From IMG/VR virus record IMGVR_UViG_2645727640_000017: DNA of 11,246 bases. One strand, given 5' to 3'. Under the pieces are notes generated by a model. That model was not told the DNA's origin. It saw only the letters and a list, made by a program, of their open reading frames with translations, and searched no databases. The position numbers and the translations under genes are program-made. Below, in pieces: positions 2,683 through 8,456 of the stretch. Every line of letters starts with the position of its first letter. The first letter of the stretch is position 1. The stretch is from a virus. Its lineage: Duplodnaviria; Heunggongvirae; Uroviricota; Caudoviricetes.

Positions 2683-3483
2683 ATGATTACTCCTGCACAA
2701 CAACACTGGCAGAACGTGATGGCACAGCGCGCAGGCCGGGCGAATGAAGGCGTGGACCACGCCGCGCGTACCGCGCATGAAGAGGTGCTGTATCGTCTGC
2801 GTCTGGCACAGGCCCGGCTTAAGGGCGTACAGGCCAGAAGCGCGAAAGCCGCCATCAAAAAAGAGTTGTTGCCGGATTTTTCCGGCTGGATTGAGGGAAC
2901 GCTGGAGGCTGACGGCGGGCAGCAGGATGAAGTGATTGCCACGCTGATGGTGTGGGCAATTGACTGCGGCGATCTTCCGCTGGCGTTGCGTATTGGTGCG
3001 TATGTGGTCCGTCATAACCTCATTATGCCGGATAACTTTGGCCGTACTGCTGCCACAGTGCTGACCGAAGAAATCTGCAACCCGGTACTGACGCAGGCCG
3101 GGACGGATGCCGACGCGGATTTGTCCGCCTTTATCGAACCACTGGATACCCTCCGGGAGATTGTCACCGACCAGGACATGCCGGACGAAGTGCGCGCCAA
3201 ATTATGCAAGGCGTGCGCCTTTGCCCGCCGTGGCCTGAGTGATGCGGACAGCATGGCCCTGTCACTGAAGCTGCTGCGCGAAGCAATGCACCTGAACCCG
3301 AATGCAGGTGTGAAACGCGAGATTGCAACCCTTTCCCGCGCCCTGAAAAAAGCCGATTCCGCAGCCGAACCAGAAGACGCCAGCGCACAGCAGGCGCAGG
3401 ACGAAAGCAGCAAAAGTAAAAAGACAACGCGGAAGCCTGCAACACGAAAAACCACCGCGACGCAGAAGGCGAAGCGCGGTTAA
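2683..3483 (+). CDS. M: Terminase small (endonuclease) subunit, P2 gpM-like
   Basis: 266-aa ORF with GGAGAG five nt upstream of ATG 2683. KKELLP, MPDEVRAKL and AGVKREI blocks and the basic K/R-rich C-terminal tail match the P2 gpM family. Position after N is as in P2. Confidence 0.86.
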   Translation: MITPAQQHWQNVMAQRAGRANEGVDHAARTAHEEVLYRLRLAQARLKGVQARSAKAAIKKELLPDFSGWIEGTLEADGGQQDEVIATLMVWAIDCGDLPLALRIGAYVVRHNLIMPDNFGRTAATVLTEEICNPVLTQAGTDADADLSAFIEPLDTLREIVTDQDMPDEVRAKLCKACAFARRGLSDADSMALSLKLLREAMHLNPNAGVKREIATLSRALKKADSAAEPEDASAQQAQDESSKSKKTTRKPATRKTTATQKAKRG

Positions 3484-3499
3484 CGACTGACCCCGTCAG

Positions 3500-3570
3500 C
3501 GGGCGGCGTGCGCGGTGTTCCGGTTTGACTCCGTGACCGTTTACACCGCGCACCCACCGCCCGATTTTTT
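3500..3570 (+). terminator. Candidate intrinsic terminator/attenuator: long interrupted GC-rich inverted repeat followed by T6, between gpM and gpL
   Basis: Left arm CGGGCGGCGTGCGCGGTGT (3500-3518) pairs with right arm ACACCGCGCACCCACCGCCCG (3543-3563) as 11 bp plus 7 bp perfect pairs with a small internal loop. The 24-nt apical region contains its own CGGT/ACCG mini-stem. This is followed by A then TTTTTT (3565-3570), then AGGAG (3572-3576) and the gpL start. Confidence 0.4.
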
Positions 3571-3584
3571 CAGGAGTGAACCCC

Positions 3585-4079
3585 ATGAGTATGGTTGCCA
3601 GAACCAACCCCGGACCCGCAGAGGACGACATCACCGATACCGATGATGGTGATATCCGTATTTCAGCGGGTGCATTCTGGCCGGATATTGTGCTGCGTGA
3701 GCTGCGTCTGGCGGTACGACTGCCGGGCCGTGTGACCACCTCCCGCCTGCTGCATACCGCCACTGGGGCCGTGGCACACGTTACCCGCGAGCTGGAAGCA
3801 TGGCAGCAGGAACAGCAGGCGGCTGGCCATCAGACGCTGGCCGATGTTCCGGCACCCGTAATTAACGGAGAAAGCGTCAATCTCTGGCACTGGCGCAATG
3901 CTGTTTATACCGCCACACGCGCCCTGATTCTGGAGCGTTACCGCGATGCAGACACAACGGACAAGGGCGACCGCCGGGCGGACGCACTGGATATACAGAC
4001 ATCGGATTTGTGGCGCGATGTGAGCTGGGCCATCTCTGACATTCTGCGCCGCCCGCGAATCTTTGCGGAGTTGTGCTGA
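3585..4079 (+). CDS. L: Head completion/stabilisation protein, P2 gpL-like
   Basis: The track ORF 3576..4079 begins at a GTG that overlaps the ribosome binding site; I chose ATG 3585, eight nt after AGGAG. The LADVPA..INGESV..WRD motifs resemble P2 gpL. The stop TGA (4077-4079) overlaps the gpX start. Confidence 0.85.
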   Translation: MSMVARTNPGPAEDDITDTDDGDIRISAGAFWPDIVLRELRLAVRLPGRVTTSRLLHTATGAVAHVTRELEAWQQEQQAAGHQTLADVPAPVINGESVNLWHWRNAVYTATRALILERYRDADTTDKGDRRADALDIQTSDLWRDVSWAISDILRRPRIFAELC

Positions 4080-4279
4080 TGAAGGTGAAGGCACTGGAAG
4101 GCGACACCGTGGATTCGCTCTGTTTCCGGTACTACGGCACGACGCAGGGCGTCACCGAAAAGGTGCTGGATGCCAACCCCGGGCTCTGTCAGCAGGTATT
4201 TCTGGACGCCGGGCAGGAAGTGGAGATGCCGGAGCCGGAGAAGAAGAAACGAGAAATGATTCAGTTGTGGGGGGAATAG
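4079..4279 (+). CDS. X: Small tail protein, P2 gpX-like (LysM-like fold family)
   Basis: 66-aa ORF from ATG 4079 (tgATG overlap with the gpL stop). The GDTVDSLCFRYYG...VLDANPGL pattern matches gpX-family proteins, and it sits between L and the holin as in P2. Confidence 0.82.
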   Translation: MKVKALEGDTVDSLCFRYYGTTQGVTEKVLDANPGLCQQVFLDAGQEVEMPEPEKKKREMIQLWGE

Positions 4280-4994: not shown

Positions 4995-5398
4995 AGCTCT
5001 GGCCCACGCTGGGCGTCGCTTTCCTTCTGATTGCCGCATGGGGAACATCCATGCGTCTGTCGTGGTCGCTTGGCCGGGAGAACGCCAGAAACGAAGTGCA
5101 GGCCAGCACCCTGAAAAGCACCGTCGACACCCTGAATATCATCAGCACCGGGGTACAGGATATGCAGCAGGTGCTGGCGCAACTCCGCGTGGAAAATCAA
5201 CAGAGAAATCAGGACGGAGAGGCCAGACGTGAACAGCTACGCAACGATATTGCAAAAGATGAATGCGCCCACGCTTTGCCTGACGCTCGTTTTACTGACA
5301 GGTTGCGCAGGCACGCAGAACGCGCCACGGCCAGCGCCGTCAGTCCGGCTTATACCGCAGACGCTGACCATACCGGTAACGCCTCCCCCCTTCCCTGA
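4991..5398 (+). CDS. lysB: i-spanin (Rz-like), P2 LysB equivalent
   Basis: ATG 4991 overlaps the endolysin stop (ATGA). N-terminal transmembrane segment LWPTLGVAFLLIAAWGTSM followed by a charged, Q/R/E-rich predicted coiled-coil region. The track ORF 4847..5398 is an upstream extension in the same frame that overlaps the endolysin. Confidence 0.78.
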   Translation: MKLWPTLGVAFLLIAAWGTSMRLSWSLGRENARNEVQASTLKSTVDTLNIISTGVQDMQQVLAQLRVENQQRNQDGEARREQLRNDIAKDECAHALPDARFTDRLRRHAERATASAVSPAYTADADHTGNASPLP

Positions 5399-5549
5399 TA
5401 CTCCCACATGGGGAAATCTCGGTATATGGGGCGACCGCCTTCTGGATGCACTGGAAACCTGTAACGCGGATAAACGGGCCATTGAATTACTGGAACAGCG
5501 CAGGCTGCAACGACTGAACAACGAGGATAACAACCATGCTGAAAACTGA
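5229..5549 (+). CDS. lysC: o-spanin lipoprotein (Rz1-like), P2 LysC equivalent; starts inside lysB in another frame and extends past it
   Basis: GTG 5229 lies six nt after GGAGAGG (5216-5222); an alternative ATG is at 5259. Lipobox LLTGC in MNSYATILQKMNAPTLCLTLVLLTGC, followed by a proline-rich mature region (PRPAPSVRLIPQTLTIPVTPPPFPDTP). Overlaps the 3' half of lysB and 14 nt of gpR. Confidence 0.68.
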   Translation: MNSYATILQKMNAPTLCLTLVLLTGCAGTQNAPRPAPSVRLIPQTLTIPVTPPPFPDTPTWGNLGIWGDRLLDALETCNADKRAIELLEQRRLQRLNNEDNNHAEN

Positions 5550-6003
5550 TTCCCTGCGTGAAGCCATGACCCGTTCATGCCGATGGTGTCAGGCCAACCC
5601 GGAAAAATTCACCATTTTCGTGGAGAGCGGCAATATTGAAACGACCGGAGAAACGCCCTCGTTTGTTTACCACTATCAGATGGTGATGTTTGTCATGGAT
5701 TACGCCGGAGAGCTGGACGACCTCACGCTGCCGCTGCTGGCGTGGTTATCCGAAAATCAGCCACAGTTGCTGCTCAATCCGAAGCGTAATCAGGACATCA
5801 AATTTTCTGCCGTTATCAATGACGATGACAGCGCCGATCTCCTGTTTACGCTCCCCCTGCAGGAACGCGTTCGCATCACGCGCAGCAGTCAGGGTACACC
5901 GCAGGCAGAACACCTGCCGGAGCCAAAACCCCGCCTGCCCTCTTCCGAAGGCGACTGGTCGCATGTATTCCAGGATGTGACGTGGAGTGAAAGCGATGGA
6001 TAA
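5536..6003 (+). CDS. R: Tail completion protein, P2 gpR-like
   Basis: 155-aa ORF. MLKTDSLREAMT...FVESGNIE...LPLLAWLSENQPQLL matches the gpR family as I recall it. Position after the lysis genes is as in P2. Confidence 0.86.
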   Translation: MLKTDSLREAMTRSCRWCQANPEKFTIFVESGNIETTGETPSFVYHYQMVMFVMDYAGELDDLTLPLLAWLSENQPQLLLNPKRNQDIKFSAVINDDDSADLLFTLPLQERVRITRSSQGTPQAEHLPEPKPRLPSSEGDWSHVFQDVTWSESDG

Positions 6004-6631
6004 GGCATTCATCCGCGTGGATGAAACCTTTGAGGCCATCCGCGACAGCCTGAATCAGCAGGCCATCAATAACATCGCCAGAAAGCTGGCACAGGATTTA
6101 CGTCGCGCCCAGCAGGCACGTATCCGGTCACAGAAAGCGCCGGACGGGACCGCATGGACACCACGCAGACGCCGCGTAACCCGGATACAGGAGCGCATTC
6201 GCTTTATCTGGAATAACGAAGCACGCACGCTGAAAAACTGGCATCACGACACGGGGAAATACGGGCGAACCATCACCGGGTGGGATGAGGATAAAAACAA
6301 TATCCGCACGTTTTACCGGGATGACATCGACCGTTTTCTGGAAATACGCACCCGGCGCATCAACCAGGACAGCACAAAGCGCGTCCCCATGTTCGTAAAA
6401 CTGCGCACCGCCCGCCACCTGAAAGCCCGTGCAGATGCTTCCGGTGTGACGGTGGGTTACAGCGGCGTGGCCGCACGTATTGCACGCGTTCATCAGTTCG
6501 GTGAGCGCGATCAGGTTGCGCCGGGCATTTTCACCGATTACCCGGTACGTGAGCTGTTGGGCATCAGTCAGGCAGATGAACGCCTGATTTATAACACGGT
6601 GCTGGGCCGGATTGCGGAGGCTGTACGGTGA
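5996..6631 (+). CDS. S: Tail completion / virion morphogenesis protein, P2 gpS family
   Basis: ATG 5996 lies eight nt after GGAG (5984-5987) and overlaps the gpR stop; the track starts at the upstream GTG 5987. The stop overlaps the gpV start (GTGA). Assigned from conserved position between R and V and family-like sequence (QKAPDGTAWTPRRR...ARVHQFGERD). Confidence 0.8.
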   Translation: MDKAFIRVDETFEAIRDSLNQQAINNIARKLAQDLRRAQQARIRSQKAPDGTAWTPRRRRVTRIQERIRFIWNNEARTLKNWHHDTGKYGRTITGWDEDKNNIRTFYRDDIDRFLEIRTRRINQDSTKRVPMFVKLRTARHLKARADASGVTVGYSGVAARIARVHQFGERDQVAPGIFTDYPVRELLGISQADERLIYNTVLGRIAEAVR

Positions 6632-7209
6632 GCGCAGAACTCATGCGACTGCTGAGCAACATCATCCGCACCGGGATCATCTCTGAAGTTGATGAGAAAT
6701 CCTGGTGCGTGCGCGTTCGCAGCGGCGAACTGGAAACAGGCTGGTTGCGCTGGAACACCACGCGCGCGGGAGCCTTCAATGTGTGGCTGCCGCCATCACC
6801 CGGCGAACAGGTGGTAATTGCCTGCATTGGCGGCAACCCGGAAACCGCCATGATAATTGGCAGCCTGTGGAGTGATACCAATCCGGCCCCCGGCAAAAGC
6901 CTGAAAGAAATCGTGGTCAGCGCGCCGGATGGCGCGGTGTTCCGCTACGACGCGGACGCAGGCGCACTGAGCGCCAGCGGCATGAAAACAGCCAGCCTGC
7001 AGGCATCCGTCAGCGTGACACTGGACACGCCCGTCGTGGAATGCACAAACCTTCTGAGAACGGCGACGCTTGACGTCACAAAAGGGGGAAAGATGAGCGG
7101 CAATATCACGCACAGCGGCGGCAATTTCACCTCAAACGGCATCACAGTGCATACGCATAAGCACGGTGGCGTTAAAGGTGGCAGCGATTCGACAGGAGGC
7201 CCGCAGTGA
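6628..7209 (+). CDS. V: Baseplate spike/assembly protein, P2 gpV-like
   Basis: GTG 6628 lies seven nt after GGAGG (6616-6620); an alternative ATG is at 6643. IRTGII...WLRW..RAG...GEQV...KHGGVKGGSDSTGGP blocks match gpV-family spike proteins. Confidence 0.9.
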   Translation: MSAELMRLLSNIIRTGIISEVDEKSWCVRVRSGELETGWLRWNTTRAGAFNVWLPPSPGEQVVIACIGGNPETAMIIGSLWSDTNPAPGKSLKEIVVSAPDGAVFRYDADAGALSASGMKTASLQASVSVTLDTPVVECTNLLRTATLDVTKGGKMSGNITHSGGNFTSNGITVHTHKHGGVKGGSDSTGGPQ

Positions 7210-7559: not shown

Positions 7560-8456
7560 ATGCCCGCCGTTGACCTTTCCCAGTTACCGGAACCCGCCAT
7601 CATCGCGGAGCCTGACTTTGAAGCAATTCTGGCTGACACAAAAGCCATGATGATTGCGTCCTATCCCGCCGAACAGCGTGAAGCCGTTTCCGCCGCGCTG
7701 GAGCTGGAATCGGAACCCCTTAACGTTATCGCCCAGACAACAGCGTTTCGTGAAATGCTGTTACGCCAGCGGGTCAATGAGGGTGCACGCGCCTGCATGT
7801 TAAGCCACAGCGCCGGGACAGACCTGGACAACCTCGCGGGCAATATGAACACAAAGCGCCTGGTTATCACTCCGGCAACGGATACCACCGACGCGGTGAT
7901 GGAGAGCGACACCTCGCTGAGACTGCGGGCGCAGCGGGCGTACGACGGCCTGAGTGTTGCTGGCCCGTCAGGTGCATACGAGTATTTTGCCCGCAGCGCC
8001 AGCGGTCTGGTGCGTGATGCGCGGGCTATCAGTCCGTCTCCGGCCAATGTGACGGTTTCCATCCTGTCCACTGAAGGCGACGGCACAGCAACGGAGGCGT
8101 TGCTTAATACCGTTCGCGCCGTTCTGAATGCAGAGGATACCCGCCCGGTGGCCGACCGCCTGACGGTACAGAGCGCCAGAATCGTGACATGGCGGCTGAA
8201 TGCAAAACTGTACTTTTACCCCGGTCCGGAATCCGAACCTATTCTGGCCGCGGCGGAATCGTCGTTCAGGAAGTGGCTGGCTGAGCAGGGGCTTATCGGT
8301 CAGGACGTGGCGCTGTCAGCCATTGCTGCCGCACTGCATGTGCACGGTGTGCAACGCGTGGAGATAATCGAACCCACACAGAATATGGCCATCAGCGACA
8401 TACAGGCGGCGCGCTGTGAGTCATTCACCATCAGCGAAGGTGGGCGCAATGAGTAA
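7560..8456 (+). CDS. J: Baseplate protein, P2 gpJ-like
   Basis: 298-aa ORF with GGGAG seven nt upstream of ATG 7560. MPAVDLSQLPEP...RPVADRLTVQSA...LHVHGVQRVE blocks match gpJ. Confidence 0.9.
   Translation: MPAVDLSQLPEPAIIAEPDFEAILADTKAMMIASYPAEQREAVSAALELESEPLNVIAQTTAFREMLLRQRVNEGARACMLSHSAGTDLDNLAGNMNTKRLVITPATDTTDAVMESDTSLRLRAQRAYDGLSVAGPSGAYEYFARSASGLVRDARAISPSPANVTVSILSTEGDGTATEALLNTVRAVLNAEDTRPVADRLTVQSARIVTWRLNAKLYFYPGPESEPILAAAESSFRKWLAEQGLIGQDVALSAIAAALHVHGVQRVEIIEPTQNMAISDIQAARCESFTISEGGRNE

Follow-up and report, generated by a model that had tools for sequence, protein, structure and literature searches.

The gap of 101 nucleotides (nt) that separates the genes of gpM and gpL (3484-3584) in an 11,246-nt stretch of viral DNA (IMG/VR record IMGVR_UViG_2645727640_000017, called the window below at its full length) carries a hairpin that is the local copy of a deeply conserved, covarying, single-copy element present in almost every P2-like phage examined. 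A function of this hairpin as terminator is partly supported in the lineage of phage P88 and unsupported as the function of the family. The window spans the late region of a prophage of the P88 type (genus Xuanwuvirus, family Peduoviridae), and 701 nt around the gap are 96-98% identical to P88 and its relatives. The element lies on the coding strand between gpM (small terminase; 2683-3483, Pfam PF05944) upstream and gpL (head completion; 3585-4079 with an ATG start, Pfam PF05926) downstream, and it is a strongly conserved two-hairpin element of about 80 nt without description in Rfam or in the genome annotations checked. The function that we favor, at a probability of about 0.5, is that of a cis-acting RNA structure of the late mRNA which partitions the O operon and which acts as a leaky terminator as well in the P88 lineage.

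Structure of the Element in the P88-Like Prophage

The original prediction, made from the letters of the window, had placed the arms of an interrupted inverted repeat at 3500-3518 and 3543-3563, followed by A, six T and the gpL ribosome binding site. Both arm pairs have been recovered by a repeat search exactly there, and the downstream order is likewise as described, with A3564, T6 at 3565-3570, AGGAG at 3572-3576 and the ATG at 3585. Folded as RNA, the + strand forms a 64-nt compound hairpin (H2, 3500-3563) consisting of 7 base pairs (bp), a 1x3 internal loop, 11 bp and an apical hairpin. In the outer stem CGGGCGG (3500-3506), of which the last two G are invariant in the family, pairs with CCGCCCG (3557-3563), of which the first two C are invariant. 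The internal loop is made of an invariant unpaired C (3507) on its 5' side and a conserved unpaired CCA (3554-3556) on its 3' side. In the inner stem GTGCGCGGTGT (3508-3518) pairs with ACACCGCGCAC (3543-3553), the latter found both in the RNA fold and by the repeat search. The variable apical part (3519-3542), which belongs to a clade-specific region, folds into a small hairpin (3521-3539) with the stem CGGTT/GACCG and the loop TGACTCCGT. This loop (3526-3534) contains ACUCC, complementary to the gpL Shine-Dalgarno GGAGU (3572-3577) located 40 nt downstream.

A second small hairpin (H1, 3487-3499), which had not been part of the prediction, has been seen in the minimum-free-energy fold; it has a 5-bp stem and a C-rich 3-nt loop (CTGAC-CCC-GTCAG). 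Directly 5' of H1 stand the gpM stop codon TAA (3481-3483) and CGA, which together (3481-3486) are the local form of a conserved (A)CCGA. On the other side of H2, A, T6 and C (3564-3571) form a lineage-specific U-tract, and the gpL Shine-Dalgarno AGGAG with the ATG start codon (3585-3587) occupies 3572-3587, all on the + strand. The distance from the stop codon to the start of H2 is 19 nt and from the end of H2 to the gpL start 21 nt, and the gpL ribosome binding site begins 8 nt past the H2 stem. A GTG listed as start at 3576 falls within the gpL Shine-Dalgarno, and the P88 record starts L at the equivalent ATG.

The predicted structure is far more stable than expected for its composition. 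RNA folding of 3495-3575, which had been proposed as a check, yields -43.5 kcal/mol vs -26.9 +/- 3.1 kcal/mol in shuffles (z = -5.4, with none of 200 shuffles as stable), and the full gap (3484-3584) folds with -49.1 kcal/mol (z = -4.9). A covariance model built from 56 diverse members of the family matches the whole element at 3480-3563 on the + strand with 47.6 bits (E = 2.5e-8), a match that is partly given by construction, since the window is among the training sequences.

Conservation Across P2-Like Phages

The inverted repeat has been found at the M-L junction of relatives to an extent far beyond what the original prediction had expected. Among complete E. coli genomes, 1081 of 5426 carry the 92-nt gap, with a single occurrence in each prophage. 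M-L gaps of 92-111 nt with the same fold are present in P2, 186, PSP3, Fels-2, SEN5, phiCTX, RSA1, PHL101, 500465-1 and ST512phi13.6. In YenM42.18 the M-L gap is longer (233 nt) and the same motif adjoins L. The same architecture, with a gap of about 100 nt, has been seen at 92 M-L junctions from gamma-, beta- and alphaproteobacterial hosts which had been retrieved via proteins only. In order to avoid selecting on the RNA, 80 loci were collected from one-genome-per-species bacterial assemblies by alignment of the capsid protein gpN, with a host range that includes Enterobacterales, Halomonas, Stenotrophomonas, Acinetobacter, Aeromonas, Burkholderiales and a Sphingobium. M and L were both found in 79 of these 80 loci, nearly always about 100 nt apart and with the motif; CCACC is present in 76 of the 79 gaps and TCACC in the other three.

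Searches that start from the element itself lead to the same junction. The DNA pattern GGCGGCACG N20-50 CGTCCACCGCC, which represents the most conserved version, has at least 120 matches in viral contigs, and of 80 matches that were fetched, 79 lie between gpM and gpL homologues on the coding strand. The sole match outside this context (L118) is located inside an open reading frame (ORF) of a GC-rich contig, reaches 17.6 bits and has been treated as a chance match. The covariance model gives one match each in the 11.2-kb window, of which both strands were searched, in P88, in P2 (5901-5982) and in phiCTX, with nothing else below E = 2, and one match per contig across 740 kb of P2-like viral contigs, so that no second copy has been found by this model in any of these sequences. 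A dispersed repeat of the repetitive extragenic palindrome or bacterial interspersed mosaic element type has been ruled out, as there is one site per prophage and 1-3 per genome, always in the same context.

The distribution has a boundary within the P2-related phages. In HP1 the M and L genes overlap and leave no gap (L298, 15750-17040), and the covariance model finds nothing in the whole genome. K139 possesses a 106-nt gap (18285-18390) with a different hairpin that is not significant against shuffles, and its genome is likewise without a match to the model. The element thus characterises the P2/186/phiCTX-type majority of the family rather than the HP1/K139 branch. Two further observations concern this branch: the K139 gap shows a similar ACCTATTTAGAGAG tail, and in both HP1 and K139 L is followed by tail genes instead of X and the lysis genes.

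The position of the element relative to the two genes has been altered in a few loci. An ORF has been inserted between the element and L in L271, a Rhodoferax metagenome-assembled genome, and in L275, the Sphingobium locus. In Aeromonas tecta (L273) an ORF lies between M and the element, and the stop codon of this inserted ORF again stands directly before CCGAG. In one more locus (L256), 117 nt separate the M stop from H2.

With regard to earlier descriptions, Rfam 15 contains no match at or near the gathering score in the window, and in ten diverse relatives it gives nothing in the M-L gap at E <= 1. A match of mir-2071 on the minus strand (3502-3558) reached 22 bits (E = 0.31), where the gathering score is 100, and has been discarded as a long-hairpin artefact. 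The genome records of P2, phiCTX and P88 hold no annotation in the M-L gap, and the record of PHL101 alone annotates a predicted terminator and a promoter in its gap. In the literature searched the element is undescribed, though the original sequence papers of P2, 186 and phiCTX may contain an early remark on a stem-loop.

Covariation Around an Invariant Internal Loop

Along the coding strand, the members of the family share the order stop codon, (A)CCGA, H1, a C-rich linker of 0-6 nt, H2, tail, Shine-Dalgarno sequence and L start. The 5' flank reads TAACCGA, CAACCGA or ACACCGA in most members. H1 is found in nearly all of them with 3-5 bp and a C-rich loop (CCC, CCCC, ACCC, CACGC and others), and its stems have been judged, without a formal score, to be compensatory by clade (GTCG/CGAC, GCG/CGC, GTGC/GCAC, GCGT/ACGC, CTGAC/GTCAG, TTGC/GCAA, CGCC/GGCG). 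H2 has a median length of 61 nt and consists of an outer stem (6-7 bp, with GG at its end), a single unpaired C, an inner stem (4-14 bp), an apex that varies, the CCA and the returning CC, which results in an internal loop with GG followed by C on the 5' side and (C/U)CA followed by CC on the 3' side. The tail behind H2 comprises about 7 nt, is G-free and rich in A, C and U, with an A-C-U-(U/A)-rich linker as consensus; it is enriched in T across the family (33% vs 16% T in the flanking genes, p = 2e-8). Among 75 loci, the median spacing from the stop codon to H2 is 23 nt and that from H2 to the L start 19 nt (interquartile range 17-22).

The constancy of the loop has been seen even when its 3' bases were left unconstrained in the parse: in 88 sequences CCA was found 78 times and TCA five times, and the 5' bulge C in 87. 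The H2 core was aligned without gaps for 76 distinct sequences that had been retrieved via proteins. In this alignment the 5' bulge C is present in all 76, the C and A of the loop (C30, A31) are invariant, and the two outer-stem pairs adjoining the loop are G-C in 76 of 76. The stems on both sides vary in a coordinated way. Standard pairs occupy 91.6% of the cells vs 60.8% in column shuffles, compensatory changes have been found at 13 of the 15 pairs, and cells in which both sides have changed number 334 vs 94 +/- 8 in shuffles. The covariation score of 0.739 compares with 0.160 in shuffles, of which none in 500 reaches it, and falls to 0.12 or less when the partners are slid by 1-3 columns. 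The register of this alignment was chosen to maximise pairs around the CCA anchor, which somewhat favors pairing; the slid controls and the unconstrained parse argue that the covariation is not produced by this choice.

All eight inner-stem pairs tested in the alignment show compensatory changes, and the pair adjoining the loop takes all four Watson-Crick forms (AU 33, GC 27, UA 12, CG 4). One position of the outer stem is similarly distributed over CG (49), GC (24), AU (2) and UA (1), and the relative in E. coli CM2 carries GC/CG swaps at two inner-stem pairs. The apical part of H2 is clade-specific. In a clade of phiCTX, Stenotrophomonas and Xanthomonas sequences (L297, about 6990-7040; L234, L237, L241, L266 and L276), an extra internal loop with UGAUC opposite GUGAC and a CU-rich terminal loop have been observed, and the UGAUC/GUGAC loop may be a second recognition feature of the phiCTX-type clade.

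Several other kinds of structure have been considered for the conserved parts and rejected. Pseudoknots in which the C-rich loop of H1 or the flanking CCGAG would pair elsewhere were looked for by eye, and the complementarity of CCGAG with CUCGG is confined to the phiCTX clade. A tRNA-like structure or RNase P substrate is not indicated, as the pair before CCA covaries and hence leaves no discriminator base, and no consistent RCCA follows the outer stem. A general anti-Shine-Dalgarno loop has been dismissed as well: the tetramers CUCC, CCUC or UCCU occur in 34 of 87 apical regions vs 23.5 +/- 3.9 in shuffles, and this enrichment is clade-specific. Such tetramers are most pronounced in the phiCTX/Xanthomonas clade and absent from P2, 186 and Fels-2.

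Possible Termination and Read-Through in the Late Operon

The site had been called terminator-like, which holds for its structure, its position within the operon and its U-run, and a leaky terminator is a reasonable interpretation in the P88 lineage, whereas the U-tract is not a family-wide property. In the window a GC-rich hairpin with a 7-bp GC outer stem ending at 3563 is directly followed by the U-tract of A and T6 (3564-3570), which is present on the sense side alone, and T6 or T7 has been found in all 77 close relatives of the P88 clade (T7 in 16 of them). In the divergent prophage of E. coli CM2, a run of 9-10 T (L081, 3079-3088) replaces part of the 3' strand of the outer stem. Among 81 distinct family members, 11 (about 14%) have at least five T in the first 8 nt after the stem, and five have a run of at least five T. 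No usable U-tract is present in P2, 186, phiCTX and RSA1, and to judge from their sequences P2 (GACTTTTC), 186, PSP3, phiCTX and RSA1 would not terminate at the hairpin. As these phages would not terminate there and U-tracts are rare in the family as a whole, termination cannot be the function that maintains the element. In the P88 lineage, termination appears as an additional property, and a processing or stability element, which the original prediction had named as the other possibility, appears to fit the family-wide data better. Indeed, the conserved set of H1, compensatory stem changes and the invariant C/CCA loop is not what a generic terminator needs.

In terminator prediction, the site is not reported by a simple consensus scan because its loop, with 24 nt between the inner arms, is longer than 8 nt. 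The d'Aubenton-Carafa discriminant, computed with modern energies and read against an approximate threshold, is borderline here (d = -7), owing to the large and compound hairpin, and amounts to d = -41 in P2. The 64-nt structure with its internal loop is not a compact terminator hairpin, and it does not close a transcription unit, the gpL ribosome binding site being located 8 nt past the stem and the P2 terminator after S. A sigma-70-type scan, which is blind to Ogr-dependent late promoters, has found no promoter-like sequence on the + strand of the whole window. Given this result and the ribosome binding site only 8 nt away, any termination must be leaky.

The co-transcription of O, N, M and L that had been assumed for P2 agrees with the curated P2 RefSeq record, in which the O operon is a single transcription unit (O, N, M, L, X, Y, K, lysA, lysB, R, S). 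In P88 the genes continue gaplessly into the tail genes, and together with the single unit of P2 this requires that the M-L hairpin is read through. The S-like and V-like genes of P88 overlap (19576-20789, corresponding to about 5996-7209 of the window), with no orf30 and no space for a P2-type V promoter. The late operon may therefore begin at O and include the tail fibre genes, so that read-through at the M-L junction becomes even more necessary; its length is about 6 kb in P2 and apparently exceeds 10 kb in P88-like phages. In the P2 record, lysC contains a putative attenuator and S is followed by a terminator, with the M-L gap left blank. The attenuator in lysC (8399-8417) is a hairpin without T-run (GCTGGCACGCTGTGCCAGC). 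Its presence in the same operon means that internal control may be exerted at more than one point.

An efficient intrinsic terminator that closes an O-N-M unit, with L and the downstream genes transcribed from a promoter of their own, would be in line with the GC-rich hairpin followed by A and T6 and with the terminator and promoter predicted in the PHL101 record. We consider this very improbable, since the 8 nt before the gpL ribosome binding site offer neither room for a promoter nor a promoter-like sequence, the scan of the + strand (with its blindness to Ogr-dependent promoters) was negative, O to S are annotated as one unit in P2, most family members have no U-tract, and the discriminant is borderline here and negative in P2.

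The remaining late genes upstream and downstream of the junction have been assigned by Pfam as gpO (725-1561), gpN (1585-2637) and gpX (4073-4279). The M-L gap had been described as the longest intergenic stretch among the late genes of the window; this is so within the late operon, whereas the divergent P/O promoter region (about 572-724) is longer. An apparent gap of 137 nt (5399-5535) between the end of a lysB-like gene at 5398 and the start of an R-like tail gene at 5536 is bridged by an overlapping ORF (5229-5549), which is lysC-like by the position of P2 lysC (an Rz1-like gene) and is unannotated in P88.

A Proposed Partitioning Element of the Late mRNA

In the partitioning function favored here, the hairpin would divide the late message into two domains. 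The upstream domain with O, N and M (scaffold, capsid and terminase) would end in, or be protected by, a very stable 3' hairpin, and the downstream domain with L, X, the lysis and the tail genes would begin with a ribosome binding site about 8 nt from the base of the hairpin, in a fixed structural context. In the P88-like lineage, the A and U6-7 after the hairpin would cause a fraction of the RNA polymerases to release, as expected of a leaky intrinsic terminator or attenuator, and the remaining polymerases would read through. This read-through is obligatory, as the gap lacks a promoter-like sequence in the sigma-70-type scan and the gene order leaves no room for another promoter. In most relatives, which have no U-tract, the role would be post-transcriptional only, and the hairpin could act as a barrier to 3' exonucleases, as a processing site or as fixed 5' context for the translation of L. 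The T-rich, G-free tail would also suit an unstructured, S1-friendly leader of L. Moreover, a specific conserved partner, either a protein or a ribonuclease, may read the helix at the 1x3 internal loop; such a partner is implied by the invariant loop, in which C faces C/U-C-A next to a clamp of two invariant G-C pairs.

If the element determines how much head protein is made relative to lysis and tail proteins, it would be part of the timing of lysis and of the balance of assembly, and partitioning, if true, would make sense of lysis genes that stand under the same promoter as the capsid genes.

A number of points weigh against this function. Searches of the literature have yielded no transcript data on this or related phages, and the curators of P2 marked an attenuator and terminators elsewhere in the operon and none in the M-L gap. 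The boundary after M rather than after N is not an obvious place for a step in dosage, because M, the small terminase, is not abundant. A plain stabiliser or terminator leaves the invariant loop unexplained, HP1 lives without the element, its M and L genes overlapping, and the terminator discriminant given above is borderline. Furthermore, the pairing does not reveal the nature of the folded molecule. The fixed helix positions comprise 942 Watson-Crick, 19 G.U, 15 A.C and 12 other cells, and G.U is thus not clearly commoner than A.C. A preference for the sense strand that had appeared in an earlier count (31 G.U vs 7 A.C) was withdrawn in favor of the 19 vs 15 at fixed positions, since the parser had scored G.U as pairs. 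On average, slightly more stable folding is predicted for the antisense strand, probably because this strand is the G-rich one, and the element also folds as single-stranded DNA with -28.3 kcal/mol (z = -5.6). Together, the wobble counts, the antisense folding and the DNA folding leave the folding strand and the RNA nature undistinguished by the data.

We infer that the folded molecule is RNA from its context, which favors this assignment: the element occupies a transcribed intercistronic gap, with a stop codon close on its 5' side even in the Aeromonas tecta locus and a start codon about 19 nt on its 3' side, and sense-side U-tracts arose beside it in several lineages. The same data bear on a site that would act as single-stranded DNA, located on the strand displaced in gpA-initiated rolling-circle replication and serving as a start of the complementary strand via loading of a primosome or helicase. 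Stems that are about 95% Watson-Crick without an excess of G.U over A.C, the stable DNA fold and the single copy per genome would suit such a site, and according to the P2 record the ori nick lies on the + strand, the strand of the late genes, and gpB is required for lagging-strand synthesis. Its probability is nevertheless low. The element is confined to a transcribed intercistronic gap, a few nt after a stop codon and about 19 nt before a start codon, it remains directly behind a stop codon after an ORF has been inserted upstream, as in Aeromonas tecta, and sense-side U-tracts have evolved alongside it in several lineages. HP1 replicates in the same way with no such element in its genome, and possible prophage decay in many of the sampled sequences would alone equalise the counts of G.U and A.C.

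The invariant loop also suggests a protein-binding operator, in which the C/CCA loop would be bound by a phage protein, for example gpM or gpL, or by a host protein, in order to set the translation of L and of the genes coupled to it downstream. The hairpin, whose base is about 8 nt away from the gpL ribosome binding site, would then serve as a scaffold for presentation of the loop. In favor stand the invariance of the loop and its two clamping G-C pairs amid covarying surroundings, the fixed spacing between the base of the hairpin and the L start (median 19 nt), the single copy per genome and the location beside morphogenesis genes. We regard an operator as unlikely, since no candidate protein is known, the motif precedes another ORF instead of L in the Rhodoferax and Sphingobium loci, and the loop has been maintained across hosts and phage genera although the gpL proteins of phages sharing it are only 32-49% identical.

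A further possibility is that the RNA acts on the transcribing polymerase. The late operon of P2 is subject to Rho-dependent polarity, and the put RNAs of HK022 consist of two stems. A put-like processive antiterminator or an anti-Rho RNA would let polymerase complete the long late operon after its only long untranslated gap. The two adjacent hairpins with conserved unpaired bases, reminiscent of put, their location in the sole untranslated stretch of about 100 nt in the operon and the conservation across hosts that have no more than core machinery, for instance RNA polymerase, in common speak in its favor. On the other hand, the element is situated about 2.8 kb downstream of the O promoter region and thus not promoter-proximal as put sites are, a U-tract of its own follows it in the P88 lineage, it has no similarity in Rfam or otherwise to known antiterminator RNAs, and HP1 manages without it, which renders such an activity improbable.

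More generally, one may tentatively consider an unrecognised, family-wide Peduoviridae element whose C/CCA loop has a specific partner, be it an RNA that reprograms RNA polymerase or blocks Rho over the remainder of the late operon, an RNA cofactor or operator to which a head or packaging protein binds, or the long-missing initiation site of the complementary strand in P2-type rolling-circle replication. Although we find this class of explanation doubtful, it would make the element more than a passive terminator or stabiliser hairpin.

Whichever function applies, P2 and 186 serve as textbook examples of temperate phages, and few prophages are as common in Enterobacteria as the P2-like ones, yet this strongly covarying single-copy element with its invariant internal loop, located amid their main late operon, lacks an Rfam entry and a feature in the P2 record. 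Should it recruit a specific factor or act in replication, it would represent a new mechanism in a well-studied system. For practical use, it provides a compact, sequence-independent marker of P2-like head modules, and its natural compensatory variants are available for experiments.

Comparison With Known Systems

Within P2 itself, the tQ and ogr terminators resemble the M-L hairpin in that a GC-rich stem is followed by a T-run on the sense strand. They are, however, short hairpins at the ends of operons with T6 directly after the stem, whereas the M-L hairpin has 64 nt, stands in the middle of the operon and reaches d = -7. The intercistronic RNase III processing hairpins of T7-like phages (R1.1 and others) occur in many copies per T7 genome. 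In anatomy only, they are similar to the M-L element, being located tens of nt before the next start and having a helix of about 20 bp with an asymmetric internal loop, and processing at such a site would leave a protective 3' hairpin on the upstream message. The M-L element differs by its occurrence once per genome and its extremely GC-rich stems.

A three-base CCA bulge within a helix, combined with a link to head and packaging genes, is also known from the prohead RNA of phi29, in which the CCA bulge is needed for DNA packaging. That RNA is a separate molecule of about 120-174 nt with several helices that forms a ring on the portal, whereas the CCA of the M-L element faces an unpaired C in a simple hairpin within an mRNA. 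Packaging of P2 is reported to have been achieved in a reconstituted system of purified proteins. The likeness to the phi29 RNA is probably coincidental. A site of single-stranded DNA initiation, in turn, would resemble the hairpins located between genes F and G of phiX174 and G4.

Structured RNA motifs without known function have been found beside phage head genes before, such as Mu-gpT-DE and other orphan motifs (Rfam; Weinberg et al., 2017, PMC5737381). Like these, the M-L element is a conserved covarying structure adjacent to a head-morphogenesis gene in prophages, though it belongs to another phage family, has other neighbouring genes and another architecture, and is matched by no Rfam family.

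The intergenic terminators TJ, TF and TG of phiX174 are weak and read through, with upstream genes expressed above downstream ones (bioRxiv 10.1101/2020.03.05.979765), and the same preprint cites older work that has tied these intergenic terminators to mRNA stability. The likeness to TJ, TF, TG and TH consists in hairpins which occupy short gaps between morphogenetic genes of one phage operon. Those of phiX174 are ordinary small terminators with several copies per genome, in contrast to the single-copy, compound M-L element with its 1x3 loop and, in most members, no U-tract. We know of no conserved internal loop in the phiX174 terminators. By analogy, a partitioning of the O operon at the M-L junction would nonetheless match the logic of these weak, read-through terminators.

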